From a virus, in IMG/VR virus record IMGVR_UViG_3300050501_000396: a stretch of DNA of 57,716 nt; one strand, given 5' to 3'. Shown here piece by piece: positions 2,502 through 45,023 of this stretch. The first letter of the stretch is position 1; every line of letters starts with the position of its first letter. Made by a program: the position numbers and the translations under genes. The notes under the pieces are model-generated. The model did no database searches and was not told the DNA's origin. It saw only the letters and a list, made by a program, of their open reading frames with translations.

Positions 2502-2519
2502 TAGGTCGCGACCCTGCCG
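2502..2519 (-). promoter_or_regulatory. late intergenic motif copy M1
   Basis: Minus-sense CGGCAGGGTCGCGACCTA; GG lies 27 nt before ATG 2491; no SD. Confidence 0.6.
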
Positions 2520-2528
2520 CAGGGCGCG

Positions 2529-4217
2529 CTACCAGCCGATCGCCGCGCGCAGGCCTTCGGCGAGCGAGGCGTGGCCGTTCTCGTTGGGATGGACGGTATC
2601 GAAGTAGAGGTTGTTGGCGCCCGTCGAGTACGGCGTGATCAGCGTGGTCCCGTCGATGAGCGTCGCCCACGCGCGCGTCGACACCAGCGTCCCGATCTGC
2701 GTGCGGTAGGCGGCCAGCGTGTCACCGAGGCCGTTCGCGACTTCGCTCGAGCGCAGGAGCGGGGTCACGATCCAGATGCGCGCGCCGGGGTGCGCCGCGT
2801 GCCAGTCGTCCATCAGATTGCCGTACGAGGTCGAGAAGTTGGCCAGCGTCCACGACGCGCCGTTGTAGTCGTTGGTCCCGATGATGCTCACGATGTCCGT
2901 GAGCCGGATCCCCATCGAGCGGCGCACGAACGCGAGCCGCTTGGTCGCATCATCGGTCATCGAGCCGACGGTGCCAGCGCCGCAGTCCTCGGCCAGTTGG
3001 CGCCCGCTGTGCGCCTCGCAGATGATGCCGCCAGGGAACGACTGCCGCATCACCGGCACGACGCCGCCGAGCAACGCATCGGTGCAGCCATGGCCGGCGG
3101 AGATCGAGTCGCCGTAGACCATCATCTGCCGGCCGCGGTTCTCCATCGGCGGCAAGACCTCGAGGTACACGTCCGATGGGACGTAGAGCGCGTTGATGGC
3201 GGACCCGACGATGACGGGCGCCGGGATCGTGCCCGAGTTGTCTTTCAGCGGCGCATAGATCTCGACCGTCTTGACGCCGGGCGGCAAAGTGAAGGTCGTG
3301 ATGTTGTAGCTGTTCAGCGCGCCGACGAGCGGGATCACGCCGATCGCCTTGCCGTCGACGTAGACTCCTGGGTGCGCGTTCGCGCTCAAGAACTGCCGCA
3401 GATAGTCGACTGCGATCACCGTCGAGTTCGTCCGGAACACCAGGCGCGCGCCAGCGCTCGAGTCGTTCTTGCGCGACGTCGCGCCGAAGCGCAGGTTGTC
3501 GTGCCACATGCCCGAGTGGACGACGACGCGGGCGAAGCTCGCGTTGAACGGTGCGGCCAGGCTGCCGAGCGGAATCAGGCGCACGCGGGTGACCAGCGCC
3601 GTCGCCTGGCTGGTGGTGCCCTTGCCCGTGTTGTGGACGTGGATCTGGCAGCGATACTCGGTGCCGGCGACGACCGCGCCGACGCAGGTGAAGCGCTGCA
3701 CCGCCGTCGTGAGCACGCAGACGGTCTCCGAGATCACGGTCGTTCCGTCGACCTGGTAGAGGCCGATCACGATCGTCTGGTTGGTGAACGTGGCCGGCAG
3801 CTTCGCGTCCACTTGGAGTTCAACCTGGGTCGCACCCACCGGTGCCACGAACTGGTGCGCAATCCGACCACTCGCCGGTGCGGCCTGGTTGCGGTTGAGT
3901 CGCACCGCGTCCGCGCGCGTGGCCCCGTCGAGGTCGACATAGCTCTCGCGGCTGGGCGTCTTCTTCGGCGCGTTGGACGAGTCGATGACGTCCCACTGCT
4001 TCGCGTAGACATCGCCCAACAGGATTGTGTTCAGCTCGATCATGACGTCGTCTCCTGGAATCGGTGCGGGTGCTGGCGTCGCCACGAAGTTGCCGCCGCT
4101 CTGCAGGGCACGCGGAGCCCCGGGCGGGCGACCTACGAACACGCCTCCGCCAGTGGGCTGGGCATCCGAGCCTGAACCTGAACCTGAACCTGAACCGCGC
4201 TTGCTGCTGAAGCCCAT
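2529..4217 (-). CDS. tail fibre/spike protein with C-terminal SGNH (GDSL) esterase domain
   Basis: 562 aa; N-terminal (GS)n linker; C-terminal blocks VYGDSISAG, GTNDY and DTVHPNENGH (DxxH). Confidence 0.75.
   Translation of the reverse strand: MGFSSKRGSGSGSGSGSDAQPTGGGVFVGRPPGAPRALQSGGNFVATPAPAPIPGDDVMIELNTILLGDVYAKQWDVIDSSNAPKKTPSRESYVDLDGATRADAVRLNRNQAAPASGRIAHQFVAPVGATQVELQVDAKLPATFTNQTIVIGLYQVDGTTVISETVCVLTTAVQRFTCVGAVVAGTEYRCQIHVHNTGKGTTSQATALVTRVRLIPLGSLAAPFNASFARVVVHSGMWHDNLRFGATSRKNDSSAGARLVFRTNSTVIAVDYLRQFLSANAHPGVYVDGKAIGVIPLVGALNSYNITTFTLPPGVKTVEIYAPLKDNSGTIPAPVIVGSAINALYVPSDVYLEVLPPMENRGRQMMVYGDSISAGHGCTDALLGGVVPVMRQSFPGGIICEAHSGRQLAEDCGAGTVGSMTDDATKRLAFVRRSMGIRLTDIVSIIGTNDYNGASWTLANFSTSYGNLMDDWHAAHPGARIWIVTPLLRSSEVANGLGDTLAAYRTQIGTLVSTRAWATLIDGTTLITPYSTGANNLYFDTVHPNENGHASLAEGLRAAIGW
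4171..4200 (-). repeat. perfect hexanucleotide tandem repeat (CCTGAA)x5 encoding the (GS)n linker
   Basis: Five identical units read directly; lies in codons 8-17 of the fibre gene. Confidence 0.9.
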
Positions 4218-4231
4218 GGGAGCGGTCCTCG

Positions 4232-4699
4232 CTACGGGATCTGGCTGTTAGGCGTGAGCGGGCGCAGGGCCTCGAGCCGGCCCAGCGCGCGCGTCTCGAC
4301 GCGGTTGTCCGCGTACTTCACGCGGATGTCGTAGAGCTCGGCGCCCGGCGATTCGGCCAGCTCCACCAGGAGCGCCTCGTCACCCGGGCGGAAGCGGACG
4401 GTGAACTTGCCGTCGGTCGGTGTCGCCGAGAGCACGATCTGCTTCGTCCCCGGGGCCTCGCCGGCGATGTCCGTCACCGTGTCGCGGTCGAAGAACGCCT
4501 GCACGTCAGAGGCGGACCGCTTGACGGTCATGGCCACGCGCGCGCCGGTGAGATCCACGGCCACGCCAGCGGCGTCGACCACGCGGAATTCCTGCGACCA
4601 GGAGTCCCCGGCCACGAGCGGCATAGAGCCAATGCTCGTCAGGTACGCCTCGGTCAGGTTGATCTGGCGCCCGGTGGGCGAGAGGTCAATGGTTGCCAC
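4232..4699 (-). CDS. hypothetical tail/fibre-associated protein (155 aa)
   Basis: Track ORF 4232..4747 trimmed to GTG 4699 (VATIDLSPTGRQ...), which lies 28 nt after motif M2, as for other late genes. Confidence 0.55.
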   Translation of the reverse strand: MATIDLSPTGRQINLTEAYLTSIGSMPLVAGDSWSQEFRVVDAAGVAVDLTGARVAMTVKRSASDVQAFFDRDTVTDIAGEAPGTKQIVLSATPTDGKFTVRFRPGDEALLVELAESPGAELYDIRVKYADNRVETRALGRLEALRPLTPNSQIP

Positions 4700-4710
4700 G
4701 AGGAGCAGGC

Positions 4711-4728
4711 TGCGCTGGCACCCTGCCG
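4711..4728 (-). promoter_or_regulatory. late intergenic motif copy M2 (variant)
   Basis: CGGCAGGGTGCCAGCGCA; 28 nt from GG to GTG 4699. Confidence 0.5.
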
Positions 4729-4796: not shown

Positions 4797-5105
4797 ATGA
4801 AAACTCTTGCGCTGGTGCTCCTCGCTCTCGTCCTCATGGGCTGCTCCGAAGAGACCGCCTCGACAGTGTCGCCCAGCGAGCAGCGCTGCGCCGCGATCGC
4901 CGAGTGGCAGTGCCGCTGCGACGCCGGCGCGGACGCCAAGCGCGCCGCCCAGTGCATCGACTACACCGTGTCGCTGTGCCTGGACTACCCGAACTTGCAG
5001 GAATGGTCCGCGTCGTGCGAGAGCGCACTGGCCGAGCTGGCATGTCCGCTGAACGGCCCCATCCCCGAGGTCTGCTCGTACGCGACCGGCGATCCGACTA
5101 ACTAG
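4797..5105 (+). CDS. Cys-rich secreted lipoprotein (moron on the opposite strand)
   Basis: MKTLALVLLALVLMGC lipobox; 8 further Cys residues; the only + strand gene inside the tail module. Confidence 0.7.
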   Translation: MKTLALVLLALVLMGCSEETASTVSPSEQRCAAIAEWQCRCDAGADAKRAAQCIDYTVSLCLDYPNLQEWSASCESALAELACPLNGPIPEVCSYATGDPTN

Positions 5106-6220: not shown

Positions 6221-6233
6221 GTCCTGGCCACCC

Positions 6234-6251
6234 TGCGTCGAGACCCTGCCG
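6234..6251 (-). promoter_or_regulatory. late intergenic motif copy M3
   Basis: TAG-CGGCAGGGTCTCGACGCA; 30 nt to ATG 6220; no SD. Confidence 0.6.
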
Positions 6252-8759: not shown

Positions 8760-8771
8760 GCCAGCCGAGGC

Positions 8772-8789
8772 TGCGCCGGGACCCTGCCG
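8772..8789 (-). promoter_or_regulatory. late intergenic motif copy M4
   Basis: TAG-CGGCAGGGTCCCGGCGCA; 29 nt to ATG 8759; no SD. Confidence 0.6.
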
Positions 8790-12532: not shown

Positions 12533-14343
12533 CAGCTGCCGCCCTCCCGGAACACGTGGCGCGACGCCCCCGGGTTCCGCAGGGCGTCATGGACGAGCGC
12601 GCCGAGATCCATCGAGAAGCGGTCGGGGTCATCCGATATGACCGTGACCTCGACGTTCACGTTGGCCGCCGGGATCTTCGGGATCTTCTTCGCGTCGGTC
12701 GGGTCGTTCACGTTCGGCATCCCGCCGAAGCCGGGCACGAGGCTCAGGGCCCGGCTGAAGATCAGGCCCACCTTGTTGGAGACGCCCGCGTCCATCTCGG
12801 CACCCCACGCCTTGATGGTCATCTTGCTCCACAGGTCCGCGCCCAGCGCGAAGGCCTCAGGGAGCCCGCTCTTCTCGTACATCGCCTGGCGGTCAGGCGC
12901 GGACATGGTGCGGAGGAACTTGCTCTCCTCGTTCAGCGCCTTGTTGAGCGTGTCGATGTAGTTCTGGATCGCCTGGGTTGACATCCCCGCGTCGACGCCG
13001 GACGTCGCGATCGCGGCGCTGTTCACGAATTTGCGGGTCTTCCCCTGCACGAGGAAGCCGATGTCGCCCGCCTGCGTGAGCATGCGGTTGGCGCGTGTCA
13101 GATCCGCCTGGCGCATCTCGCGCGAATTCTTGAGACGGTCGCCCTCTTCGCCGAAGCTGTACTCTTTCGCGCCGCGGTTGAGCACTGCCCAGTCGCCCTG
13201 GGCGTTCACCCGCCGTTCCTGCCGCGCCGCGATGTCGTCGGCGATGATGGGCGCCGCGATCGCCGCCGCGGCGAGCGGCGCAGTCACCAGCGTGAGAGCC
13301 GACGCGAACGCGCCGAGGCTGCCGGGCCCGCTGCCGGCGATCTTGGCGAGCAGGCCGGTGATGTTGCCTACCCCGCTGAGACCGCCTACCACCGCGCCCA
13401 CACCCTTGCTCACCAGGTACGCCTTGGCGAGCGACATCAGCAACTCGCGGTTGTCGACGACGAAGCTGGCGATCTTCTGCACCATCTCGAAGCCCTTCAT
13501 GAGGGCATTCGTGAAGTCGGCGGCGAACTGACGGATCTTCTCGGGGTTCTTCTCGATCCAGGCGTTCCACTTCTGGACCTCGGCCGTGATCGCCTTGAAC
13601 AGCGGCAGGCCGATCTTACCCGCCGCGATCTGCAAGTTGTCCTTCAGGGTCGAGGTCACGCCGGCGAAGCTCTCGCCCATCGCCTTGGCGGCGCTCTTGA
13701 GCGCGGGGTCGTTCAGCGCCGCCAGGACGATGGCGTTGCGGCGCTTAGTCGTCATCTTGTTGAAGGCTTCCGCCGTTACGTTCTGGGATGCGAGCAGGAC
13801 TTGAGCGGTTCGGTCGCGGCTAGTGACATCACCCGAGAGCATCTGCTTCACGTCGAGCGAAACCATGTCGGCCCGCTCACCGAGCGCGGCCGCGGCGATC
13901 GTCGCTCCAATCGTCATCTCTTTGAGCTGCTGCATGCCGATGCCCGCACGGTAGGCGCTCGCGGCGATCCCGGCGTGCATGTCGAGGAAGTCCTTGGTCT
14001 CACCGACGGAGTTCTTCGCGACCTGCTGGTAATCCTCGAACAACTGGTTCGCGTGCCCCATGGCAACGTCCCAGCGGCCTCCGAGCAGGAGCTTCTCCTG
14101 CGCGGCTAGGCTGATGGTCGACTTCTCGATCGACGAGTTGAAGCCAACGAACGCCTGCGCGCCGGCGCGCAGCACGCCGTACCCGGCGAGCGCCGTGGCG
14201 ACACCGCGCAACGACGACGTGAGTCCCCCCATCGAGCGCGACGCCCTGTTGGCGCTGCCCTCGATGGCCTTGAGCGGCCCCGATGACTCGTTTCGAGTTT
14301 TGTAAATGGTTTCGACGAGGTACGTCGTGGTCGTGCCAGCCAT
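12532..14343 (-). CDS. tail tape measure protein
   Basis: 603 aa, Ala/Gly-rich helical; follows the G/GT chaperones and precedes the baseplate genes. Confidence 0.8.
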   Translation of the reverse strand: MAGTTTTYLVETIYKTRNESSGPLKAIEGSANRASRSMGGLTSSLRGVATALAGYGVLRAGAQAFVGFNSSIEKSTISLAAQEKLLLGGRWDVAMGHANQLFEDYQQVAKNSVGETKDFLDMHAGIAASAYRAGIGMQQLKEMTIGATIAAAALGERADMVSLDVKQMLSGDVTSRDRTAQVLLASQNVTAEAFNKMTTKRRNAIVLAALNDPALKSAAKAMGESFAGVTSTLKDNLQIAAGKIGLPLFKAITAEVQKWNAWIEKNPEKIRQFAADFTNALMKGFEMVQKIASFVVDNRELLMSLAKAYLVSKGVGAVVGGLSGVGNITGLLAKIAGSGPGSLGAFASALTLVTAPLAAAAIAAPIIADDIAARQERRVNAQGDWAVLNRGAKEYSFGEEGDRLKNSREMRQADLTRANRMLTQAGDIGFLVQGKTRKFVNSAAIATSGVDAGMSTQAIQNYIDTLNKALNEESKFLRTMSAPDRQAMYEKSGLPEAFALGADLWSKMTIKAWGAEMDAGVSNKVGLIFSRALSLVPGFGGMPNVNDPTDAKKIPKIPAANVNVEVTVISDDPDRFSMDLGALVHDALRNPGASRHVFREGGS

Positions 14344-14365
14344 GCGCTACCCTCACCGTCGACGA

Positions 14366-14383
14366 TGCATCGCGACCCTGCCG
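14366..14383 (-). promoter_or_regulatory. late intergenic motif copy M5
   Basis: TAG-CGGCAGGGTCGCGATGCA; 39 nt to ATG 14343, with GAGGG in the extra spacer. Confidence 0.6.
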
Positions 14384-14970
14384 CTATTCGTCCGGGGTCA
14401 TCTGACCCGCGCCGCCGCCGTAGAGCGCCTCAAGGTAGGTCTGCACCGACTTGTGCAGGTGCCAGCGGTCATGCGTCGAGAGGCGCATGTACTCGCGGAA
14501 ATCCATCCCCTGCCTCCCGATCATCACCCACTCAGCAATCAGCTGGCGGCGCAGGCGCCGGTAGATGGGAAACGGGCCGCCTACCGCGTCGCCAGCGTCT
14601 CGGGGTCGACGGCCTCGCCTTTTCCCAGCTCATCCTCCGCCTCTGGGACCTGGTTCAGCTTGCTGAAGCACCGCAGGGCGAACTCGGCCGAGCGGTTGGT
14701 CCAGTCGTCGAACTCCGAGAAGGGAAGCATCACCTTCGCGTCTTTCGACTCGCCGGCGTAACGGTAGGCCACGACGGAGATCTTCGCCAGCTCGCGGACG
14801 AAGTTGGTGTCCTTGTCGCCCTCGCACGCGCGCGCCGCGTCCTGCGAGTCGAATGCGTCGGTCTCGCGCACCACGATGCTGCCCAGCATCCGACCGTGCC
14901 CGTCATGGCACTGCTTCGGAAACTTGAACCTCATGTGGAGCAGGTCCGGGTTGGATTCCTTGCGTCCCAT
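14384..14970 (-). CDS. tail assembly chaperone GT fusion made by a -1 programmed frameshift
   Basis: The -1 frame is open from the slippery site to TAG 14384 and reads as a plausible protein (PFPIYRRLRRQLIAEWVMIGRQGMDFREYMRLSTHDRW...). Confidence 0.65.
14581..14970 (-). CDS. tail assembly chaperone (gpG-like)
   Basis: 129 aa between the tube and tape measure genes; contains the slippery heptamer near its 3' end. Confidence 0.7.
   Translation of the reverse strand: MGRKESNPDLLHMRFKFPKQCHDGHGRMLGSIVVRETDAFDSQDAARACEGDKDTNFVRELAKISVVAYRYAGESKDAKVMLPFSEFDDWTNRSAEFALRCFSKLNQVPEAEDELGKGEAVDPETLATR
14620..14626 (-). other. -1 frameshift slippery heptamer G GGA AAA
   Basis: Read in the zero frame CTG GGA AAA GGC, 13 codons before the G stop; X XXY YYZ type as in lambda G/GT. 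Confidence 0.65.
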
Positions 14971-14992
14971 CTGTGCCTGTGCCCTTCCGTGT

Positions 14993-15433
14993 CTACTGCG
15001 TGATCAACTTCGGGCTCGTCTCGCAGAAGCCCTCGAACGAGCCGGAGACGTTCTCCTTGCGGCCCGAGTAGCCGCGCTCCCCGGGCTTCATCGTCGTGTC
15101 TGGGTACAACACGACCATTTTGCGCTGCCCGATCTTGCGGTACTTGTACTGGACGCTGATGGTCACCTTGGGGGGCTCGAGGCCCTGCTCCTCGGACTCC
15201 ATGAGCAGTTGGCGCAGCAGCAGCGCCTGGTTGTCGTCCTCGTCGTGCGAGAACGAGTAGCCCACGCCGTTGAACTGCGGATTCGCCTTGGACGTCCGCT
15301 GCCCCGGGTAGTCGTCCATCTTCAGGTCGAAGTCCGGGTTTTCCTTGAAGTCCTTCGTGAGGATCACGAATCGCCGACCGTTCGCTGTGATGAAAAGTTT
15401 GGCCTCACTGCCGCGGATCGATGCCGAGCTCAT
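14993..15433 (-). CDS. tail tube protein (contractile tail)
   Basis: 146 aa immediately after the sheath gene. Confidence 0.65.
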   Translation of the reverse strand: MSSASIRGSEAKLFITANGRRFVILTKDFKENPDFDLKMDDYPGQRTSKANPQFNGVGYSFSHDEDDNQALLLRQLLMESEEQGLEPPKVTISVQYKYRKIGQRKMVVLYPDTTMKPGERGYSGRKENVSGSFEGFCETSPKLITQ

Positions 15434-15444
15434 CGCCTACCTCC

Positions 15445-16998
15445 TTAAGCCGCCGAGTCCTCGGCAATGGTCGTGCCGGTCCCGATCTGGGTCCTGAGAA
15501 CGAGCCCGAGGATGTGACCGATCAGCTTCACCCTCCACTCGATGAACTCGAGCCCCTGGGCGCGGCTCAGCGCCGTGTTCGGCGTCACCTGGTCGATCGA
15601 GAACTCCTCGACGGTGTCGTTGGCGCGGCGCAGGCTGTCGCAGAACGCCACCAGCTCGCCGCCCATCGCGGCGCGCGTGTCGTCGGTGTTGTCCTCCTTG
15701 ACGAACTCTTCGAGTCGGCTGGCCGCGGAGAGTTGGAGGAAGTCCGCCGAGCGGCGGCGCGCGATCTCGGTGAGGCCCGGCGTGAGGTTGGTCGTCACGC
15801 CCGACACGAAGACGAAGCCGCCGCTGGTGCTCGCCGAGCGCTCGAGCGCGCAGATGCCGGCGGCTCGCAGATCCTTGTAGTCCTGTCGGGTGAGCGACTC
15901 GAAGGTCAGCTTCATGATGCCGGCCGTAAACTTCTTGGTCGCGACCGAGCCCACGTGCTTGTTGTGGCGCGTCTGCGAGAAGATCGAGGCCAGTTGCGCG
16001 TGCGGCGGCACCTGGATCTGCTGCGCCGTCTGCGTGTCGAGGACGTAGGGCGAGTTGTAGCAGTAGACCACCCGATCCGAGCGGTAGAGCGCCGCGTCGG
16101 CGACCACGGCAGCGACGGACGCCCCGAGGGTGCCATTCCAAATCAGGAACATGCGGTCCGAAGCGGCCTGCGCCGCCGTGAGCATCGCGGCCTTGACGGC
16201 GGTCGTTGCCCTCTTCGCGACCATCACCACGGCAACGCCACGGTAGTCCTTGATGACGTTGATGCCGCGGCCCGATCCCGTGTAGTCGGCGTCCGCGATG
16301 GTGCCGTCCGTGCCCAGGACGCTCGTGAAGCTGGCAACCGTCTGGCCGAGGTTCACGAAGCCCTCGGAGTCCAGGCCCGCCATCCCCGTGGTGATGGGAG
16401 TGCCGCTGGCCAGCTTGGTGAGCGTGATCCAGTTGGCGTCGTCGTCGCCCACGACCACGAGCGTGTTGTCGTTGCCCGTGGTGATGTTGAGGTTCTCGTA
16501 GAGCTTGGTCTCGCCGAGGTACTTCAGCCGCAGGTTGAAGTGCGTGGCGTCGCCATCAGTCGCGGCCTCGACCTTGATCTTGACGCTGTTGCCCCACACG
16601 CCCGGGCTGGAGGCGTCGACGCGCAGGACCTCGACGCCGGTGCCGTTGGCGAGCGTCTCGAGCGTGAACGAGGCCTTGAGCGCAGCCAGGGCGGTCGCGC
16701 GCACGATGACCAGCTTGCCGAAGGGCTTGCCGAGCATCGCCTCCCAGATCTCGTTGATCAGCGCGCCGCCGGTTCCATTGGCGGTGTAGTCCCTGCCCCC
16801 GAACACCTCCAGAAACCGCGCCGGCGACGTGATCTCGACCGCGCGATCGACGGGCCCGCGCACGGTCGCGCCGACGATGCCCACGGTGCCGCGGTCCGCG
16901 CCGGCAATGAAACCCTGCGGCGCGGTCTCGGTGATGTAGAGACCCTCGAGCTTCGTGTATTCACTCGGGTCTGACGTGAACAAAGGTGCGGGGCACAT
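15445..16998 (-). CDS. tail sheath protein
   Basis: 517 aa; N-terminal LEGLYITE...GTVGIVG resembles the sheath PGVYVEE start; followed by the tube gene. Confidence 0.75.
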   Translation of the reverse strand: MCPAPLFTSDPSEYTKLEGLYITETAPQGFIAGADRGTVGIVGATVRGPVDRAVEITSPARFLEVFGGRDYTANGTGGALINEIWEAMLGKPFGKLVIVRATALAALKASFTLETLANGTGVEVLRVDASSPGVWGNSVKIKVEAATDGDATHFNLRLKYLGETKLYENLNITTGNDNTLVVVGDDDANWITLTKLASGTPITTGMAGLDSEGFVNLGQTVASFTSVLGTDGTIADADYTGSGRGINVIKDYRGVAVVMVAKRATTAVKAAMLTAAQAASDRMFLIWNGTLGASVAAVVADAALYRSDRVVYCYNSPYVLDTQTAQQIQVPPHAQLASIFSQTRHNKHVGSVATKKFTAGIMKLTFESLTRQDYKDLRAAGICALERSASTSGGFVFVSGVTTNLTPGLTEIARRRSADFLQLSAASRLEEFVKEDNTDDTRAAMGGELVAFCDSLRRANDTVEEFSIDQVTPNTALSRAQGLEFIEWRVKLIGHILGLVLRTQIGTGTTIAEDSAA

Positions 16999-17022
16999 GG
17001 GCGTTCTCCTCGGCGGCCATCC

Positions 17023-17040
17023 TGCGCCGCGACCCTGCCG
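17023..17040 (-). promoter_or_regulatory. late intergenic motif copy M6
   Basis: TAGTCG-CGGCAGGGTCGCGGCGCA; 41 nt to ATG 16998, with GAGGAG in the spacer. Confidence 0.6.
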
Positions 17041-17043
17041 CGA

Positions 17044-17658
17044 CTACGGCAGTGCGGTGATGGTCCCGTCGTCGTTTACGCGGATGACTTCCTTCGCGCT
17101 CGCCTGCAGCGAGGCGAACGGGGTGTCCGTCATGTCGTTCGTGAAGTTCAGACGCAGGTCGTTGATCTGGTAGGCCGCCGTGCGCACGAGCGCCGGGATC
17201 CAGCCGGTGACGGTGAGCACCTGGAACCATTCCTTGTCGAACGCGAACTCGTTGTTCCAGCCCTCGTCGTCGACCTCCCAAGCACAGACCGCGTCGTTGA
17301 CCTCGGGGATGGCCGTCGAGAGGATGCCCGGCGTGTCGCCGTCGCCCAGGAAGGCGCCGAGCAGCTGCTCGCCGAGGTCGATGCGCTGGCGCTGCGTCGG
17401 CGCGCCGAGTCGTAACTGGACGAGCGCCTCGAAGTGGCCAACGTCGAAGACCACCTCGCCAGCGCTCAGGCGGGCATGGCGGCGGCGCTGATGGGGCGCG
17501 AACTTGTCGCGCACCAGGTGGATGCCGCACTTCGGCCACTTCATCTTGTCGTCGCGGTCCGCCTCGGGGACGATCTTCCCCTGCAGCGCCGGGCACGCGA
17601 TCTCGAGCGCGGCCACGAGGCGGCGCAGCGCGAAGGTGCGAACGGGCACCATACTCAT
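17044..17658 (-). CDS. neck/tail-completion protein (by position)
   Basis: 204 aa track ORF directly before the sheath gene. Confidence 0.5.
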   Translation of the reverse strand: MSMVPVRTFALRRLVAALEIACPALQGKIVPEADRDDKMKWPKCGIHLVRDKFAPHQRRRHARLSAGEVVFDVGHFEALVQLRLGAPTQRQRIDLGEQLLGAFLGDGDTPGILSTAIPEVNDAVCAWEVDDEGWNNEFAFDKEWFQVLTVTGWIPALVRTAAYQINDLRLNFTNDMTDTPFASLQASAKEVIRVNDDGTITALP

Positions 17659-22172: not shown

Positions 22173-22204
22173 GTCGTCTCCTGTGCCCTTGCCGGAGACA
22201 ACCC

Positions 22205-22222
22205 TGCGCCGCGACCCTGCCG
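22205..22222 (-). promoter_or_regulatory. late intergenic motif copy M7
   Basis: TAG-CGGCAGGGTCGCGGCGCA; 49 nt to ATG 22172 with AGGAGA. Confidence 0.6.
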
Positions 22223-25668: not shown

Positions 25669-25679
25669 GAGAGCGACGA

Positions 25680-25697
25680 TGCGTCGCGACCCTGCCG
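25680..25697 (-). promoter_or_regulatory. late intergenic motif copy M8
   Basis: TAG-CGGCAGGGTCGCGACGCA; 28 nt to GTG 25668; no SD. Confidence 0.6.
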
Positions 25698-26375
25698 CTA
25701 CGAGGGGAGAGTGAGGACGCTACCGTCGGGCAGGTGCACGAGGACGCGGCAGCCGGGCGCGAGATGCAGGCGCACCGTACCTGGCTCGACGTACTTCAGC
25801 CGTGCCATCTGACGAGCGGCCACGATCTCGTCCATCATCTTCTCGTGCTCCGCAGACAAGGCCCATTCCGCCGGATCAACGCCCGCGGCTCGCATTTCGG
25901 CTGCGGGGCTGGTGGCCTGGCCGGGATCATCGATGAGCACGGTACTCGTCGGCTCTGGCGCTTCCCCGACGCCGCCGTCCACGCGGCCGCGCACGGCTGC
26001 GCGCGGGGGCGCCATGCGTAGGGCCTCGCCCAGTGCCATGCTGAAACGGTCGGGGTCGTCCCCGAACTCGACCGCGAACGTCACCGACCCGGGGTGCTCA
26101 AGCGCGCGAGCCATGGCCTCGTGGGCCTCCATGTCCTTCTCGGCGTCCTTCGCCTGGCGCGCCTTGAGCTTGTCGACGACTTCCTTGGGTGCCTTGGTCT
26201 TGGCCATGGCGGCATCCTGGCCCGCGACCCTGCCGTGAACGGCGCTCGCCACCTCCAGGGGCGGCGCGGTGTCGACGAGAGTGGCATTCTGGTTGGGGTC
26301 GGCACCGAGCGCGAGCGACGGTGATCCGATGGCGAAGAGCACGAGCAGACAGAGGGTCGCGGTGATGAATTTCAT
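25698..26375 (-). CDS. hypothetical protein with N-terminal signal peptide; possible nested short form from ATG 26207
   Basis: MKFITATLCLLVLFAIGSPSLALG signal; motif M9 lies in frame inside it, 27 nt before the internal ATG; shares DDPDRFSM.LG with the tape measure C-terminus. Confidence 0.5.
   Translation of the reverse strand: MKFITATLCLLVLFAIGSPSLALGADPNQNATLVDTAPPLEVASAVHGRVAGQDAAMAKTKAPKEVVDKLKARQAKDAEKDMEAHEAMARALEHPGSVTFAVEFGDDPDRFSMALGEALRMAPPRAAVRGRVDGGVGEAPEPTSTVLIDDPGQATSPAAEMRAAGVDPAEWALSAEHEKMMDEIVAARQMARLKYVEPGTVRLHLAPGCRVLVHLPDGSVLTLPS
26218..26235 (-). promoter_or_regulatory. late motif copy M9 (inside ORF 25698..26375)
   Basis: CACGGCAGGGTCGCGGGCCA; no stop codon before it; 27 nt to ATG 26207. 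Confidence 0.5.
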
Positions 26376-26386
26376 GATGGCGAGCG

Positions 26387-26404
26387 TGCGCCGGGACCCT
26401 GCCG
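26387..26404 (-). promoter_or_regulatory. late intergenic motif copy M10
   Basis: TAGTCG-CGGCAGGGTCCCGGCGCA; 28 nt to ATG 26375; no SD. Confidence 0.6.
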
Positions 26405-27428: not shown

Positions 27429-27452
27429 GGGCTGTGCCTCCGTCGGGCATCC

Positions 27453-27470
27453 TGCATCGCGACCCTGCCA
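27453..27470 (-). promoter_or_regulatory. late intergenic motif copy M11
   Basis: TGA-TGGCAGGGTCGCGATGCA; 41 nt to ATG 27428 with GGAGG. Confidence 0.6.
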
Positions 27471-29635: not shown

Positions 29636-29660
29636 CGGACTGTGCCTCCGATGCCGAGCG

Positions 29661-29678
29661 TGCGCCGGGACCCTGCCG
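29661..29678 (-). promoter_or_regulatory. late intergenic motif copy M12
   Basis: TAG-CGGCAGGGTCCCGGCGCA; 42 nt to ATG 29635 with GGAGG. Confidence 0.6.
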
Positions 29679-30342: not shown

Positions 30343-30620
30343 GGCTTCGCCTCGAGCTCTGCCATGCGCCGCTGCACCTCGCGCGTGACCGCGGGCTCGG
30401 CGCGCGCCATGCGCTCGTTGACCGTACGCTCGGGACTCGCGCCCCCGCACAGACGCACAGCGACCACTCGTGCAGCTGCGTGCGCGCCCCTCGCGATCCA
30501 CACACGCCTAAGCTTCGCCGCCCATTCGGTGGCCAGGCTATGCGTAGTCCACGCGCTATCGGTGCTCCACGCGATCTCGCTGGGATCGAGTCTGTACTCG
30601 ACCAGATACACGAGGTTCAC
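30339..30620 (-). CDS. hypothetical protein (93 aa)
   Basis: Trimmed to GTG 30620 (GTGA overlap). Confidence 0.45.
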   Translation of the reverse strand: MNLVYLVEYRLDPSEIAWSTDSAWTTHSLATEWAAKLRRVWIARGAHAAARVVAVRLCGGASPERTVNERMARAEPAVTREVQRRMAELEAKP

Positions 30621-30817
30621 TCGTTCCCCCTCTCGCCGTCCAACTCGTCCAAGCGGGGCTGCGCGCGCCTCTGAACGATCTTGAGTGTCTCGAGCTCGTC
30701 GCACTTGCCCGCGAGTGGCCCGAGCACGGCGATGAGGGCGCGGACCGCGCGCCCATAGGCCCGCAGGAGGTCCGGGTCACCGGGGACGGTTTCAACGTTA
30801 ATGCGATGTCGGGTCAT
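30617..30817 (-). CDS. hypothetical protein (66 aa)
   Basis: Trimmed to ATG 30817 (ATGA overlap). Confidence 0.45.
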   Translation of the reverse strand: MTRHRINVETVPGDPDLLRAYGRAVRALIAVLGPLAGKCDELETLKIVQRRAQPRLDELDGERGNE

Positions 30818-31506
30818 GCCGCGTCCTCCTCGGGGTCGCGCAGTTGCTCGAAGTGCACCCCGAGCTCGGGGTCGATGAGGCCCTGCTCCTTGTGCAGGTG
30901 CTTCGCGCGGCTGCCGTCCCACACGGTCTGGCCGCAGGGGACGCTCTTGGCGATGCCACGTCCGGCGCTGCCGAACTCCTCCGTGACCGGGACGGTGCAG
31001 CGGTACAGCCGCTCGCCGAGCGCCTTGCTCTTCACGGGCTTGCCCGTCTTCACCGACAGCCTCAGGACGGGCGCCTCTCGGGCGGCCACGACCGGCGACG
31101 GCGCGGCGGGCGCAGGTTCCGCCTTCGGCGCGGCAGGCTTCGCGCGCAGCTTGCAGCCCGAGCGGTGCTGGCCCTTGTTGACGCACCCGCAGGGCCGCAG
31201 CCCGATCTTCGCGGGCGGCGCCTTCTTGGGCGCGACCTTCGCCGCCGCGGCCGCGATGGCGGCGCGCCGGTCGGGCACTGGCGGCGACGCCACCTTGGCG
31301 GGCGCAGGGCGCGCGGGCTTGCGCCTCTCCTTCGCTACCGCGATGGCCTTCTGCTCCTGCGGCGTGAGCTTCGGTTTCAGCAGCGCCGAGCCCGCCGGCG
31401 CGTACTGCTCAAGCACCGCGCGTGCCGTGCGCAGCTTCTCGAGCTTGTCCTCGGTCGTGTCGATCTCCAGGTCCAGCCAGCCCATCGCGTCGTCGAACTT
31501 CGTCAT
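30814..31506 (-). CDS. hypothetical protein with Ala/Pro/Lys-rich linker (230 aa)
   Basis: Trimmed to ATG 31506 (ATGA overlap). Confidence 0.5.
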   Translation of the reverse strand: MTKFDDAMGWLDLEIDTTEDKLEKLRTARAVLEQYAPAGSALLKPKLTPQEQKAIAVAKERRKPARPAPAKVASPPVPDRRAAIAAAAAKVAPKKAPPAKIGLRPCGCVNKGQHRSGCKLRAKPAAPKAEPAPAAPSPVVAAREAPVLRLSVKTGKPVKSKALGERLYRCTVPVTEEFGSAGRGIAKSVPCGQTVWDGSRAKHLHKEQGLIDPELGVHFEQLRDPEEDAA

Positions 31507-31727
31507 GCTCCCGTGCTCCTGTGCCCGTCCTGCTGAGGTTTCGAGACCACCTGCCCCTCGTCCTCGGGCGGATGGGACATGGCCATGTGATGACCGAGCG
31601 CGCTCGCGCCGCCGAAGCGTGCGCCGCACACGTGGCAGAACATCCGCGCCGGCGGGTCGCTCACCGGCCGCGCCGCGCTGTGCAGCAAGTGGGCGACCAC
31701 CACCAGGACGATGCCGAGCAGGATCAC
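31503..31727 (-). CDS. membrane-anchored C2H2-type zinc-finger protein (74 aa)
   Basis: GTG 31727 (GTGA overlap); ILLGIVLVVVAHLL TM helix, then FCHVCGARF...HHMAMSH. Confidence 0.45.
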   Translation of the reverse strand: MILLGIVLVVVAHLLHSAARPVSDPPARMFCHVCGARFGGASALGHHMAMSHPPEDEGQVVSKPQQDGHRSTGA

Positions 31728-31975
31728 CGCTTGCCCCCGCTGCCCTGGCACGCGCGCAGGCGACGGCCGCGAGCTCGCGCCGGGCACTCCTTCCCGCGCG
31801 TGAACGTGTCGCGCCACTTGTGCACGCAGCCCGCATTCACGCAGTTGGGGCACGGCACGATCGGGTCGCTTGGCTTCCAGGGCGTCTCGGAGCGAGGCTT
31901 CTTCCCGCCGCAGCACTCGCAGCGGGCGAAGTCGGGGCGCTTCCGGTAGTTCATGAGCGTCACCGGCTGGCTCAC
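31724..31975 (-). CDS. zinc-finger protein (83 aa), candidate small transcription factor
   Basis: CECCGG...CPNC...C; first gene downstream of motif M13. Confidence 0.5.
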   Translation of the reverse strand: MSQPVTLMNYRKRPDFARCECCGGKKPRSETPWKPSDPIVPCPNCVNAGCVHKWRDTFTRGKECPARARGRRLRACQGSGGKR

Positions 31976-32448
31976 GCGGCCACCGCCTGGTGTGGCTCAA
32001 CCTCGGTTGGAAATGCCAACTGCTCACCTCGCGCCCGTCTGTGCCTACGGCGCCTAGTCGCGATGATGCATCGTGACCCTGCCGCAATCTTAGAGGCGCC
32101 CCAGCGACGGAAGCGGGGGAGCGCCATCTGGCGCCAGGCGCGCACCGGCTTCACTACCGCGTCGCTCAGGAGAAACGTGGGGCAGTTCCGATGGTGCTCC
32201 ATGTCCGTCTCGAGGCGGATGACGCGTCCCGTCTGTCGCAGGCGCTGCATGGCGCGCGCGGCTTGTCGGTAGGACCATCCGACTTCGAGGCGCAGCGCGT
32301 CCATCGTCGCCACTCCGCCGAGGTTGCGCAGGGTGTCAATCGCGAGCCAGTCCTGCGTGCTCTCGCCATCGAGCGACGCGCAGCGGTCGCAGCACCGCGC
32401 GCCCGCGCGCTTCGGAAGAGAGCAATCGCACTCGAGGCTTCGGCTCAT
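31972..32448 (-). CDS. winged-helix DNA-binding protein (158 aa)
   Basis: Trimmed to ATG 32448; DALRLEVGWSYRQAARAMQRLRQTGRVIRLE is wHTH-like; the Arg-rich 3' tail containing motif M13 may not be genuine coding. Confidence 0.5.
   Translation of the reverse strand: MSRSLECDCSLPKRAGARCCDRCASLDGESTQDWLAIDTLRNLGGVATMDALRLEVGWSYRQAARAMQRLRQTGRVIRLETDMEHHRNCPTFLLSDAVVKPVRAWRQMALPRFRRWGASKIAAGSRCIIATRRRRHRRARGEQLAFPTEVEPHQAVAA
32067..32084 (-). promoter_or_regulatory. late motif copy M13 (first in transcription order within the late region)
   Basis: TGCGGCAGGGTCACGATGCA; 108 nt before GTG 31975. Confidence 0.5.
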
Positions 32449-32639
32449 GTGACCTCCTGCGCGGGAAGCACGACACCCCTGGCGCGTAGACGGTCCGCCC
32501 GGTGCTTCGAGTAGCCCTTGCACTTTCCCAGGCGCCTGTCGACCTGAGCCGCCGACTCGCACAGCCTCCACGCCCGGAGGAAGTCCTCATCGCTACAGTC
32601 GGCCGCGGGGCCCGGCTGGCGCTTCCTGGTGCCGCTCAC
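32445..32639 (-). CDS. hypothetical protein (64 aa)
   Basis: Trimmed to GTG 32639 (GTGA overlap). Confidence 0.4.
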   Translation of the reverse strand: MSGTRKRQPGPAADCSDEDFLRAWRLCESAAQVDRRLGKCKGYSKHRADRLRARGVVLPAQEVT

Positions 32640-32806
32640 CGCCTGCCTCCCAGGAACGTGATCGCCGCATCGAGGGCGTGGCAGAACCCATGCAGCCACG
32701 CCGGGACGGCGAGCAAGGCGAACAGCACCAGGAGCCTCCAGGGGGCGAGGTCCCACGACGCGGCCAGGGCGGTAGCGATTAGGGCGCAGACGAGGGCGGT
32801 GCGCAT
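32636..32806 (-). CDS. small two-TM membrane protein (56 aa)
   Basis: Below the track cutoff; MRTALVCALIATALAASWDLAPWRLLVLFALLAVPAWLHGF... Confidence 0.4.
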   Translation of the reverse strand: MRTALVCALIATALAASWDLAPWRLLVLFALLAVPAWLHGFCHALDAAITFLGGRR

Positions 32807-32810
32807 CTCC

Positions 32811-33584
32811 TCAGCGACCCCTCATGCTCGGGTCGCTGAGCTCCACGAACCTGCCGCACTCGCGGATGCGGTCGGCGACGCGCTCGCCGTAGCGCGCCTT
32901 GAAGTCGGTAGCGGTGAGGTTCGTCGTGATGACCGTCTTGAGTTGCTCGGCGTACCGGGTGTTGAACAGCCCGTCGAACAGCGCCGTGAATGAGCCCTTG
33001 GCGTCCGCGTACTCAAGCCCTAGGTCGTCGATGGCCAGCGTGGACGCGTACTCGATCTCAGCCATGCGCTCCTCGTCGTACCTGCTCGCTCGCTGGAGTT
33101 TGGTCACGTCGAGGAACATCGGGTTCTTGCGTTTACCCATGTCGGGCCTGCCCCTCAGCACTCCCTCCATGTAGAGTTCGTGGAGTGGGCTTGGCTTGGG
33201 GTCCTGAGCTACAACCCACGCAGCCGCCGTAGTCTTCCCGCACCCGCGCGTGCCCGATAGCACGAGCACCGAGGATTCAGACTCCCACCACCCCCTCGAG
33301 ATACCCAGTGCGGACGTGTCCCGGAGCCCGCCGGCCAGCAGCGCATCAACGTCCTTGGCCGGGATGCCGCGCTGGACGAGGCGTAGCTTCCTCTCTGCGG
33401 ACTCCCGCTTCTCCGCCATGACCGCTTCCTCCCTTTCCCGCGCCGCGACCCGCTCCGCGCGCTCACGCTCGGCCTGCGCGAATACAGGGTCATTGGCGAG
33501 GCGCTCCTGATGCTTGCGTTCCCGCTCTTCCATGCCCCGCTGCCAGCTGTCCATCAGGTCGGCCATAAACTTCGGCTCGCTCAT
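32811..33584 (-). CDS. DnaC/IstB-like AAA+ helicase loader
   Basis: Trimmed to ATG 33584 (ATGA overlap); Walker A GTRGCGKTT, Walker B LAIDDLG. Confidence 0.7.
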   Translation of the reverse strand: MSEPKFMADLMDSWQRGMEERERKHQERLANDPVFAQAERERAERVAAREREEAVMAEKRESAERKLRLVQRGIPAKDVDALLAGGLRDTSALGISRGWWESESSVLVLSGTRGCGKTTAAAWVVAQDPKPSPLHELYMEGVLRGRPDMGKRKNPMFLDVTKLQRASRYDEERMAEIEYASTLAIDDLGLEYADAKGSFTALFDGLFNTRYAEQLKTVITTNLTATDFKARYGERVADRIRECGRFVELSDPSMRGR

Positions 33585-43201: not shown

Positions 43202-44118
43202 GCCTGCACCTCGAAGATGTGCCCGCACTGGGGGCAGTCCACGACCTTCCCCGGCGGCTCAGCTGCCAGGGTCGACGCCTCCACGACCTCCGCCATGGCG
43301 CTGTAGCGGTCGGGCGGAGCGGCCTCGTTGCCGGCGTAGCCGTCCTCGACGAGCTCGCCGCCCGGCGCAGGGGCGTCGGATGGCGGAACGTCGCCCCCCT
43401 GGAGCTCGGGGTCGCCGTCGTAGTCCCGTCCGATGTCGCGCACCGGCTCGCCGTCGTCGGGCGCGTCCTGCGCCTCGTCCTTGACGTAGCGCGGCTTCGG
43501 CGCGGGCGCCGGGGCCGAGTCGTGGGTAATCATGCCCGCGGTCTTGGCGGCGCGCTTGGCCGCGCCACGAGCCTTGTTGGCCGCCCCGATCGCCGCGGTG
43601 TCGCGCACCTTGCCATCCGCGCCCTTGCGCTTGGAACTGGCCGGCAACTGTCCGCGGGCGGACAGTTCAGCGCGCACCTCGCCGACCAGAGTCGGGCCGA
43701 CGTGACACCGGCGCGCGATCTCGCGATCGCTCCACTCGGTCCATTCGGAGTCGAACAGCAGTAGCGACACCGCCTTGCGCTTGTCGTTGTCCGAGCGCAG
43801 CTTTCCGGCGTTCGCGCCGACGCTGAACAGGATGGCCTCACGCTGGCCGCCCTCGCGCACGAAGACAGCCATCGTCTTCTGCTTCGCCCTCTTTGCCGCC
43901 CACCACCGATGATGGCCATCGCCGATCCACGCCATCGAGCCATCCCAGAACACGTCGATAGCGGGGAACTCGTCGCCCTCCTTCATGTCGGCGGCGTACT
44001 GATCCACCGTAGCCGGGTCGAGGCCGTCGCGCGATTGCGTGCCCTCGCCTCGCAGCCACGTGATCGGGAAAGCGGCGTGATAGCCGCGCTGGACGTCGCC
44101 TTTCTTAGAGAGAGACAC
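43198..44118 (-). CDS. ParB-like nuclease domain protein
   Basis: DGSMAWIGDGHHRWWAAKRA (ParB/Srx N-terminal motif); C-terminal CPQCGH zinc ribbon. Confidence 0.7.
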   Translation of the reverse strand: MSLSKKGDVQRGYHAAFPITWLRGEGTQSRDGLDPATVDQYAADMKEGDEFPAIDVFWDGSMAWIGDGHHRWWAAKRAKQKTMAVFVREGGQREAILFSVGANAGKLRSDNDKRKAVSLLLFDSEWTEWSDREIARRCHVGPTLVGEVRAELSARGQLPASSKRKGADGKVRDTAAIGAANKARGAAKRAAKTAGMITHDSAPAPAPKPRYVKDEAQDAPDDGEPVRDIGRDYDGDPELQGGDVPPSDAPAPGGELVEDGYAGNEAAPPDRYSAMAEVVEASTLAAEPPGKVVDCPQCGHIFEVQA

Positions 44119-44734
44119 GAGTCACCCCCGCGATGGCGGTTAGTAGTGAGGCGTCGGGCTTGAACCACTCACCGCGCAGTCGGAACGAGTCGAACCGCTG
44201 ATGCCACTCGTCCTCCAACTCGCCGTCGCCGGCGGCCATGCCGACGAGCATGATCTCCTCAGGCGAGCCAATCTGGAGTTGCGTCAGCCTGCGAGCGATG
44301 TCATTGGTCGTGCCGATCTTGATCGGGCCGTTTCTGCCCGCCTGCACGAAGTAGACGACCGACGACGGAGGCACCGCCTCAGGGCGACCGAATGGGCACA
44401 ACCCCTGGGGCGGAAACGCGACGCGCGACCACGAGGCATCAGCCATCCCGACTCTGGCCAGCTCAAGCGAAACGGCCATCTCGCACATCGGCGACGAGTG
44501 ATGGCAACTGGCCTCGAGACTCGCGTCGTCGCTGTAGCCGACGCCACCGCCGTTGCCAAACGCGAACCAGTGAAACCATGGATTGGTGCACGGAGCGAGA
44601 TAGACCATCGCCCCGCGGCTGATGGTGCGTATCTTGGTCTCCTCCTCCATGACGATCGCGCCCACGTGGAGGTATCCGCCGAACCCGTCGTGCAGTCCGG
44701 GGCTGAACCCGAACTCATCGAATCCCTTCGCCAT
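44105..44734 (-). CDS. protein with C-terminal GIY-YIG-like T5orf172/MUG113 domain
   Basis: Trimmed to ATG 44734 (SD GGAGGAG); VYFVQAGRNGPIKIGTTNDIARRLTQLQIGSP...RGEWF. Confidence 0.6.
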   Translation of the reverse strand: MAKGFDEFGFSPGLHDGFGGYLHVGAIVMEEETKIRTISRGAMVYLAPCTNPWFHWFAFGNGGGVGYSDDASLEASCHHSSPMCEMAVSLELARVGMADASWSRVAFPPQGLCPFGRPEAVPPSSVVYFVQAGRNGPIKIGTTNDIARRLTQLQIGSPEEIMLVGMAAGDGELEDEWHQRFDSFRLRGEWFKPDASLLTAIAGVTRVSL

Positions 44735-45005
44735 GCCATCTCCTCCGCGCGCTATGCGCGCACCGTCGAGAAAAAGCGCCACCGAAGTGCCGACGTTTCT
44801 CTGCTCAGAGGCCCGAGTAGTCGGTGGCCAGCTACACCGTCGGAGTGGCCGGGCTTCTTTTCGGGCCCCGGCCGCGCACGTCGCCTTCACGCTCGAAACC
44901 CGCCGGCTCGAGGCCGGGAACTCGCTCTACCTGCTCGCGGCGGCCACTCTCGCCGCCACTTCGTGCCCAATCCGCACGCCCGAAACACGTGCACAGTCGC
45001 ACTGG

Positions 45006-45023
45006 GTGTCTCCGACCCTGCCG
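45006..45023 (-). promoter_or_regulatory. late-type motif copy M14 (3' half diverged) in the early intergenic region
   Basis: GACGGCAGGGTCGGAGACAC; 288 nt upstream of ATG 44734; a GTG lies 28 nt after GG but the ORF behind it looks non-coding. Confidence 0.35.

Follow-up and report, generated by a model that had tools for sequence, protein, structure and literature searches.

A repeated strand-specific element at the late-gene starts of an uncultured temperate phage as a candidate late promoter class

Introduction

The late promoters of phage T4 contain the element TATAAATA, which is read by the phage proteins gp55 and gp33 on the host core polymerase, and its middle promoters combine a MotA box at -30 with a sigma-70 -10 element by way of sigma appropriation; in promoters of the pho-box type, too, a winged-helix protein takes the place of -35 recognition. 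The middle and late promoters of the Thermus phage P23-45 fall into the extended -10 class, are -35-independent and are used by a modified host polymerase (PMC3950348), and in leaderless genes of the Actinobacteria and Deinococcus-Thermus a TA-like -10 signal precedes the start codon by about 10 bp (PMC3160421). The start-associated sequence (SAS) of Cluster K mycobacteriophages, finally, is a 13-bp repeat with the ribosome-binding core AGGAG that lies 3-7 bp before the start codon and is found at non-structural genes only (PMC3203893). Here, we describe a GC-rich element of about 21 bp with the core GGCAGGGTC that recurs in a single orientation ahead of the late gene blocks of the viral record IMGVR_UViG_3300050501_000396, the whole 57,716-nucleotide (nt) stretch of which is referred to as the window. 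This element is a candidate phage promoter, which in function would most resemble the phage-specific -35-less late and middle promoters combined with the promoter layout of leaderless genes.

With T4 late promoters the element shares that it is short and phage-specific, that it has no -35 box, and that it occurs in many copies before late blocks and in gene direction. It differs from them in its GC-rich sequence of about 21 bp with a second, upstream block, in a predicted start of transcription on the start codon or the Shine-Dalgarno (SD) sequence, and in belonging to a temperate phage; given the GC-rich sequence, and as homologues of gp55 and gp33 were not detected with PHROGs or by comparison with a phage sigma factor encoded in the related locus L071 (see below), a T4-type late promoter was rejected. 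Like T4 middle and pho-box promoters, it would have an asymmetric activator box instead of a -35 element, a minimal -10 element (A...T) and a winged-helix protein as candidate reader. However, the box would be centred near -24 and not at -30, no MotA or AsiA homologues were found, and the candidate factor belongs to an undescribed Zn-ribbon/winged-helix family. Late genes under -35-less promoters would be a feature shared with P23-45, but an extended -10 promoter in the strict sense was rejected, since R13/C14 (numbered with the first G of GGCAGGGTC as G1) stand where TG (-15/-14) is required and a conserved block of 9-11 bp is found further upstream instead. As in leaderless-gene promoters, an A-N3-T signature ends 7-8 nt before ATG/GTG and the SD is absent, whereas here a phage-specific upstream block is present and the same start position would also serve SD-first mRNAs.

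Two further systems are similar in layout. The Cluster K SAS is likewise an asymmetric repeat in one orientation upstream of gene starts, sometimes with the stop codon inside, and is conserved across subclusters before unrelated genes; the present motif was nevertheless rejected as a member, as its A17 is followed by the SD or start at 10-13 nt, an SD core is absent from it, and it occurs in the late region only, which comprises the small-gene module behind the first copy together with the packaging, virion and last gene blocks. Promoters of the T7 type resemble it in their length of about 20 bp, their single orientation, their location at or inside upstream stop codons and their number of more than 10 per genome, but they were rejected because no gene for the single-subunit polymerase required (about 800-900 amino acids, aa) is present: the largest open reading frames (ORFs) of the window code for 603, 563 and 562 aa, all of them virion proteins, and no polymerase match was obtained with Pfam or PHROGs. 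A literature search retrieved no paper with this motif and, for similar phage systems with late promoters or leaderless genes, general precedents only.

Distribution and consensus of the element

The core GGCAGGGTC is present in 13 exact copies, all on the minus strand, as compared to a chance level of 1.12 on average and 4 at most in 100 dinucleotide-preserving shuffles, and a variant, GGCAGGGTG, lies at 4719-4727 on the same strand. This recount agrees with a first-pass annotation of the window in which 13 exact copies and one variant had been noted, all of them on the minus strand; the positions given there (2502, 4711 and so forth) are those of the A in GCA, which follows the first G at a distance of 16 nt, and agree as well. 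Twelve exact copies and the variant have the longer consensus GC-GGCAGGGTC-sCgrC-GCA-NNN-T in common, resulting in a set of 13 members. The remaining exact copy at 45014..45022 (-) consists of the bare core without C11, GCA and T21 and is located in the divergent early control region; because one match is expected by chance it can be read as such, and it is probably a chance occurrence, so that 13 of the 14 copies originally counted stand as members.

The relaxed form of the pattern matches the minus strand of the window 12 times and the plus strand not once, and in 10 of 11 related loci it is restricted to the coding strand, the exception being one opposite-strand match in L024. A weight matrix derived from the copies and applied to both strands gives scores of 22-35 for the members and 15 for the next best site. 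Every true copy is found in the late region, from 32083 downward, and the early arms hold none.

The sequence logo, computed from 31 non-identical copies, reads T(-3)..G(-1)C(0)-G1 G2 C3 A4 G5 G6 G7 T8 C9-s-C11-g-r-C14-G15-C16-A17-NNN-T21, with an invariant A17 (31/31 copies) and a T21 shared by 29/31 in otherwise variable, GC-rich surroundings. The SCG-RY-GCA block to which conservation had initially been traced is thus present, but the element is longer, the near-invariant T21 having been missed. On the upstream side, positions -44 to -5 show background information only and contain neither a -35-like box nor a GTTT-type SigB/SigF box; since there is no information upstream of position -4 down to -44, the element has no -35-like box.

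Each copy heads a functional block of the late region, namely small regulatory and packaging genes, terminase, portal and head genes, scaffold, and further blocks comprising sheath and tube, a 603-aa gene, baseplate wedge, fibres and a last block, and within these blocks the genes mostly overlap by ATGA/GTGA. The notion that almost every intergenic gap of the late region is such an element is nevertheless overstated, because next to about 11-12 gaps with the motif there are about six gaps of at least 20 nt without it (21227-21443, 20090-20152, 19274-19369, 14528-14580, 14971-14992 and 1448-1526). The first of these, 21227-21443 (-), is an ORF-free gap of 217 nt before the major capsid gene that is partly conserved in L037; it may represent a leader with RNA structure or else a copy that has degenerated.

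A TAG stop codon had also been regarded as part of the element. This view could not be maintained, as TAG is the commonest stop without the motif, too (12/22 non-overlapping late genes without and 9/10 with it), and its offset varies: the junctions in relatives read TAGC-, TAGTCGC-, TAGG- or TAGGGCC-. That TAG abuts the motif is better explained by an overlap of the conserved G at position -1 with the stop codon.

Spacing to start codons and Shine-Dalgarno sequences

The bimodal distance from G1 to the next start codon described in the first-pass annotation was reproduced exactly, with 27-30 nt for seven genes lacking an SD, 39-42 nt for four genes carrying GGAGG, GAGGA or GAGGG, and 49 nt for a single gene; for the first copy, the distance is 108 nt. 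Measured from A17, both classes follow one rule. In all four SD-type genes of the window the SD starts exactly 11 nt past A17, and in the seven genes without an SD it is the ATG or GTG that starts 10-13 nt past it. A start codon or an SD is thus found 10-13 nt past A17 in 11 of 13 window copies and in 27 of the 37 copies aligned across lineages, with a mode of 11: a start codon occupies this interval in about 20 copies, and GGAGG or GAGG begins 11 nt past A17 in 7. The other 10, which include every 'first' copy (the first in transcription direction), have longer leaders and mostly a purine at the same offset. The predicted start base is a purine in most copies, and the spacing rule also holds in distant relatives. 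Independent gene calls on public contigs arrive at the same starts at 29635, 27428, 26375, 25668, 16998 and 14343.

As SD and AUG share one offset, the AUG of one class lies 13-14 nt away from that of the other. What is kept constant is therefore the point at which the translation signal begins on its 5' side and not the position of the ribosome, which would be explained by a defined RNA 5' end. The idea of an element that sets the 5' end of an RNA at about 25 nt downstream, giving rise to leaderless or minimal-SD mRNAs, gains strength from this 11-nt rule past A17.

Conservation in related loci

Related contigs were gathered via the motif itself, via the capsid and portal proteins and via homologues of the winged-helix protein discussed below. 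In seven related metagenomic lineages the motif is kept at orthologous sites. It is retained at orthologous intergenic positions in relatives whose DNA is only 66-75% identical, and it is also kept where the winged-helix protein is only 33-43% identical. Small variants such as GTCAGGGTC and GTCAGGGTA occur in relatives. In the distant relative L066, the copy at 14201 reads GGCAGGGCC-N7-CATAAT, with CATAAT in the A17-T21 register. The locus L070 contains at least four copies of the extended pattern (10479, 12442, 15880, 19460) in addition to partial ones (14541, 15491, 20297), the majority being located downstream of the winged-helix gene of this locus. The full contigs of L024, L070 and L071 measure 49.8 kb, 49.6 kb and 66.4 kb. 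The distant relative L039, with a portal protein 45% identical, shows neither the motif nor any other repeated intergenic element besides the ribosome-site context GGCACAGGA.

A generic host repeat of the REP type was rejected. When 185,579 species representatives were scanned for TAGSGGCAGGGTCNCGNNGCA, only 15 single matches in unrelated taxa were obtained, none of them clustered or phage-related, which is roughly the chance number from base composition, though the true host may be outside this collection; tblastx on the species-representative genomes gave GC-rich noise only.

A candidate class of late promoters

Among the explanations put forward in the first-pass annotation, that of a late promoter specific to the phage has the most support, with the A17-N3-T21 signature, the CATAAT copy and the lack of a conserved RNA structure speaking for it. 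Considering the two registers in which it might be read together, the element is probably a phage-specific promoter that is read with the winged-helix protein described below. That it constitutes, more specifically, a late promoter class with a start at G1+27 to G1+29 and with leaderless or SD-first mRNAs is plausible, if somewhat short of probable. In this case GC-GGCAGGGTC would be an upstream recognition block at about -29 to -20, followed by a weak -10-like block, C16-A17-NNN-T21, with A17 as A(-11) and T21 as T(-7) and without a -35 element. Transcription would start at the purine at position 28-30, i.e., at the first base of ATG/GTG in leaderless mRNAs or at the first G of GGAGG.

The spacing of A17-N3-T21 is that of A-N3-T in the -10 hexamer, and T21 precedes the predicted 5' end by 7-8 nt; the minimal features of a sigma-70-family -10 element, A(-11), T(-7) and, 6-8 nt further on, a predicted start that is a purine in most copies, are present in the sequence. 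The copy at 4727 comes after a lipoprotein gene (4797-5105, plus strand), the sole opposite-strand gene of the late region, and fits a promoter because late transcription would need to be restarted past such a gene. A scan of 14000-33000 and 44000-57716 with the sigma-70 -35/-10 consensus yielded nothing above chance, and since there is no TTGACA-like box 16-18 nt before a TATAAT-like box and upstream positions are at background level, the motif was rejected as a promoter of this type. Intrinsic terminators above chance were likewise found neither in the late nor in the early region, and none between the late blocks.

A number of points weigh against this interpretation. The strongest conservation, that of GGCAGGGTC, falls at -29 to -20, which is not a standard contact region for sigma-70 holoenzymes, and the proposed -10 element has two fixed bases only. 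Longer leaders are found in 10/37 copies including every first one, and the window yielded no sigma factor, no RNA polymerase and no member of a known late activator family. Site-specific cleavage of RNA would yield identical 5' ends, and a different register, with CAGGGT as the -10 element and a start at C14-G15-C16-A17, is possible. Furthermore, the start sites are predicted from sequence, and the promoter comparisons use general rules that may not be those of the host.

If the element is a promoter, it would represent the late transcription signal of a widespread, uncultured and GC-rich group of temperate phages and a natural case of a single design giving both leaderless and SD-first mRNAs, with a concrete candidate for a specificity factor. 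For the annotation of related metagenomic contigs the motif is a practical marker, of late regions as well as of gene starts.

A winged-helix protein as candidate factor

The absence of a sigma factor and an RNA polymerase from the genome, noted already at first inspection, is supported by searches with Pfam, PHROGs, NCBIfam and the sigma factor of L071. In particular, Pfam and PHROGs searches with the non-structural proteins of the window revealed no sigma factor or polymerase (these proteins were partly concatenated, and sensitivity may suffer from this), nor did NCBIfam for the ten genes after the first copy; tblastn and phmmer with the L071 phage sigma found nothing in the window, and PHROGs gave no match for the genes in 29861-32806 and none to sigma-like proteins elsewhere.

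The gene in whose 3' end the first copy resides codes for a Zn-ribbon and winged-helix protein with 123 homologues in a library of 1.8 billion proteins. A profile of 40 of these matches MarR-family chains (best E 3.5e-4), a weak but consistent MarR-type similarity, and members of the family match MarR_2, TrmB and HTH_24. The AlphaFold model (mean predicted local distance difference test score 80) has an H-H-H-wing topology with MarR/SlyA-type winged-helix regulators as top Foldseek matches. The predicted product of 31972-32448 thus has the winged helix-turn-helix fold, and its binding to the motif is putative.

The first copy is embedded in real coding sequence, because the basic C-terminal tail past the motif is conserved in homologues. 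The same location inside the 3' end of the winged-helix gene is found in the window and in L008, L066, L068, L070 and L071, and in L067 the first copy follows 350 nt downstream of that gene. In the five loci other than the window that share the internal location, the winged-helix proteins are 33-43% identical and the neighbouring genes are different; moreover, the nucleotides of the first copy are kept (GGCAGGGTC / GGCAGGGTT / GGCAGAGTC), but not the residues for which they code (AAGS / AAGL / PAES). In L071 (3737-5625), the winged-helix homologue is directly followed by a 457-aa protein with Sigma70 r2, r3 and r4 domains, which scores below every NCBIfam cut-off save that of the generic sigma-70 superfamily model, and A17 of a motif copy lies 10 nt before the ATG of this sigma-70-family gene. 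The position of this copy ties the motif to a transcription cascade.

The protein had been named before as a possible cognate factor. Its linkage to the motif across lineages lends support to that suggestion and is the best available evidence that the two work together, but this evidence is correlative and the linkage could also be inherited synteny and not functional pairing. In the mechanism considered here, the protein would be made from the preceding early/middle transcript, read the upstream block, substitute for -35 recognition and recruit the host RNA polymerase, and would then turn the late blocks on. That the family represents a new promoter-specificity factor reading GGCAGGGTC at -29 to -20 for the host RNA polymerase is a tentative proposal and, as it stands, a doubtful one. 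If true, initiation would take place at GC-rich -35-less promoters exactly on the start codon or the SD, the late programme of a whole group of uncultured soil phages would rely on leaderless and SD-first mRNAs with no sigma factor encoded by the phages, and in some members the factor would head a cascade by which a phage sigma is turned on (L071). The 21-mer and the winged-helix gene would also make a compact, testable and orthogonal expression switch for high-GC hosts.

Downstream of the first copy (31503-31975 and 30814-31506, minus strand), a module coding for an 83-aa CxxC zinc-finger protein, a 74-aa membrane or C2H2-like protein and a 230-aa protein is conserved in L008 and L068. None of these proteins has a match in Pfam, PHROGs or NCBIfam, and sequence searches of the PDB with the 230-aa and 83-aa proteins came back empty.

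Alternative explanations

Instead of acting on DNA, the element might be recognised in the late transcript as GGCAGGGUC...GCA...U by an RNA-binding protein or an endonuclease of phage or host, which would either cut about 11 nt downstream to release leaderless or SD-first monocistronic pieces or load ribosomes on the adjacent start. The strict coding-strand polarity, the location between stop codons and starts and the many downstream genes without an SD would be in line with this. As no terminator-like sites separate the late blocks, a read-through RNA containing the motif is indeed probable, and small zinc-finger proteins are encoded directly after the first copy (31503-31975) and kept in L008 and L068. 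On the other hand, a nuclease or RNA-binding domain could not be recognised in the products of genes near the motif or the first copy, the first copies are 50-110 nt away from any start, and the A-N3-T signature and the CATAAT variant are features of DNA melting. Positioning of the ribosome, in particular, cannot explain the offset shared by SD and AUG, with the AUG shifted by 13-14 nt between the classes. Neither conserved structure nor covariation is apparent: RNAalifold predicts 0 pairs on the 37 copies, the folds of single copies differ, and no copy matches an Rfam family, for which reasons a known cis-regulatory or processed RNA family was rejected. An RNA hairpin was rejected as well: CGAYG/CRTCG stems, with one compensatory change, are formed by some of the copies, but no pair is shared by all 37. 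Action at the RNA level is hence considered unlikely, though it deserves to be kept in mind.

A promoter read in the other register would have CAGGGT within GCGGCAGGGTC as its -10 element (A4 = -11, T8 = -7) and a start at C14-G15-C16-A17, so that each late mRNA would carry a leader of 13-14 nt before its AUG or SD. In that case the most conserved block would also be the main recognition element, as it is in phage promoters that have a -10 element alone, for example the T4 late TATAAATA. CAGGGT fits C-A-N3-T as well, C14/G15 would be the usual pyrimidine(-1)/purine(+1) pair, and GGGTA/GGGTC resembles the GGGTAT-type -10 of SigB/SigF-class sigma factors, a likeness to be taken as a lead only. 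However, this register would leave unexplained both the near-invariant T21, then at +7, and the sharp 11-nt rule with SD and AUG at one offset; there is no GTTT-type or other -35 block upstream, and CATAAT of the L066 copy at 14201 is in the downstream register. We regard it as rather improbable.

Repeats of this kind could, in addition, be primarily boundaries for the recombination or insertion of cassettes instead of expression signals, either as sequences at which modules are exchanged or as targets of HNH homing endonucleases. Whole-gene indels between relatives are indeed bounded by copies, as both 27469-26403 and 26234-25696 (a 170-codon segment) are not in L036, and an HNH gene directly follows the motif at the sheath site (window 17039) in L024 (~6090), L035 (~9760) and L036 (~13215). 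A fixed distance to SD or start, a single orientation, a placement in the late region only and the conservation of A17 and T21 would all be unexpected for mere boundaries, which makes this explanation very unlikely. Since identical promoters repeat along the genome, cassette exchange would be a natural by-product of their being promoters, and the repeats appear to mark points of gene-cassette gain and loss.

Least credible of all are an ops-like site for pausing and loading of NusG/RfaH, as the similarity of nGCGGCAGGGTC to ops (GGCGGTAGnnTG) at 7/10 positions (9/10 in the copy at 4727) is real but, with up to 3 mismatches allowed, the window has no more ops matches than chance would give (651 found against 670 expected), the flipped-out T6 is a C in all copies and 13 sites per operon are unlike the usual single site in an operon leader, and a sigma-54 promoter, for which GGCA...GCA resembles TGGCAC-N5-TTGCA with its two blocks about one helical turn apart, so that the suspected -24/-12 architecture is there, while G1G2 and G15C16 are separated by N12 in every copy instead of the invariant N10 and no other GG/GC pair gives N10. 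Pfam and PHROGs scans of the non-structural genes found no gene for NusG/KOW, Sigma54_activat or AAA+ enhancer-binding proteins, and both readings were rejected.

Gene context of the copies

The candidate factor gene and the 13 members of the motif are compiled in Table 1.

Table 1. Positions of the winged-helix gene and of the motif copies in the window, with their surroundings
Feature	Coordinates	Strand	Sequence and spacing	Context
Zn-ribbon + winged-helix gene	31972..32448	(-)	158 aa; CxC...CxxC	candidate cognate factor
Copy 1	32063..32083	(-)	GGCAGGGTCacgatGCAtcaT; 108 nt before GTG 31975	first in transcription direction; within the coding sequence of the winged-helix gene
Copy 2	29657..29677	(-)	after TAGC; GGAGG 11 nt past A17; ATG 29635	opens 92-aa gene, then terS, TerL; start matches independent gene call
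Copy 3	27449..27469	(-)	GGAGG 11 nt past A17; ATG 27428	after TerL TGA; heads 1.07-kb cassette (27469-26403) with Cpn10-like gene, not in relative L036
Copy 4	26383..26403	(-)	ATG 26375 11 nt past A17; no SD	orthologous to L036 3622 and L055 5006
Copy 5	26214..26234	(-)	CCA for GCA; in-frame ATG 26207 10 nt past A17	in frame inside ORF 26375-25698 (own call and the collection's gene caller)
Copy 6	25676..25696	(-)	after TAGC; GTG 25668 11 nt past A17; no SD	portal
Copy 7	22201..22221	(-)	purine 11 nt past A17, SD AGGAG further down; ATG 22172	before scaffold-like gene; orthologues in L035/L036 read GTCAGGGTC
Copy 8	17019..17039	(-)	GAGGAG 11 nt past A17; ATG 16998	before tail sheath
Copy 9	14362..14382	(-)	GAGGG 11 nt past A17; ATG 14343	before 603-aa gene
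Copy 10	8768..8788	(-)	ATG 8759 12 nt past A17; no SD	before baseplate wedge gene
Copy 11	6230..6250	(-)	ATG 6220 13 nt past A17; no SD	before 372-aa virion gene
Copy 12	4707..4727	(-)	variant GGCAGGGTG; GTG 4699 11 nt past A17	
Copy 13	2498..2518	(-)	CTA for GCA, T one position late; ATG 2491 10 nt past A17	before last gene block (2120-2491 and onward)

The 603-aa gene after copy 9 is presumed to be that of the tape measure protein on account of its size and position, no family match having been obtained. The cassette headed by copy 3 contains a gene for a Cpn10/GroES-like co-chaperonin at 26776-27165 (-), as marked by Pfam on the public gene call. About 35 nt past copy 1, at 32031-32049 (-), GTAGGCACAGACGG resembles the GGAGGCACAGnCCG-ATG starts at 29635 and 27428 in the absence of a start codon, and may be the remnant of a lost gene start. 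The HNH gene after the sheath-site motif is longer in L035 than in L036, and the opposite-strand gene at 4797-5105 (+) codes for a small, cysteine-rich, moron-like lipoprotein between the fibre genes.

The phage genome and further observations

With its 57.7 kb and 68% GC, the window is the complete or near-complete genome of a temperate tailed phage, and the same genome was found again in several soil-type metagenome assemblies, with public soil and rhizosphere data sets among its sources (JGI 3300006846/6847/6880; SRR5582993, SRR5582390, SRR5585586; ERZ27257663). Its plus-strand arm (45.1-57.7 kb) contains Cro/CI-type HTH genes, an AAA_24 ATPase, a PAPS-reductase-like gene and an integrase (54975-56060). 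The minus-strand arm runs from about 44.9 kb to about 0.5 kb, with an early/middle part first, comprising a T5orf172/MUG113 gene, HNH nucleases, DUF3310 and DnaD/O-like and DnaC-like replication genes, and the late genes for terminase, portal, a Mu-F-like head protein, major capsid, tail sheath, baseplate and fibres thereafter. No close cultured relative was found: megablast with a 12-kb late segment gave zero matches among cultured phages, and tblastn with TerL against 50,697 phage records reached a best identity of 33%. A search with a portal profile likewise returned zero prophage relatives among the species-representative genomes, and from metagenomes a single additional relative, L055.

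As to the host, a tRNA at 49402-49471 (+) in the early arm is a possible clue; it was found with Rfam (39 bits, gathering threshold 29) and not by ARAGORN. At the other end of the genome, 790-1191 and 1019-1447 (-) form a pair in which a lipoprotein ORF overlaps another whose product has a membrane helix at its N terminus as well as a coiled coil; such a spanin-like (Rz/Rz1) layout hints at an outer-membrane (diderm) host.

Finally, the octamer RGGCACAG is enriched in the window (15 found, 5.4 expected) as an extended ribosome-site context. In the form (G)GAGG/AGGGCACAG it precedes start codons by a few bases on either strand, at 14971-14984, 20107-20114, 22181-22188, 27432-27439, 29640-29647 and 31519-31526 (-) and at 49487-49494 and 52874-52881 (+), and it is also found in relatives including L039.

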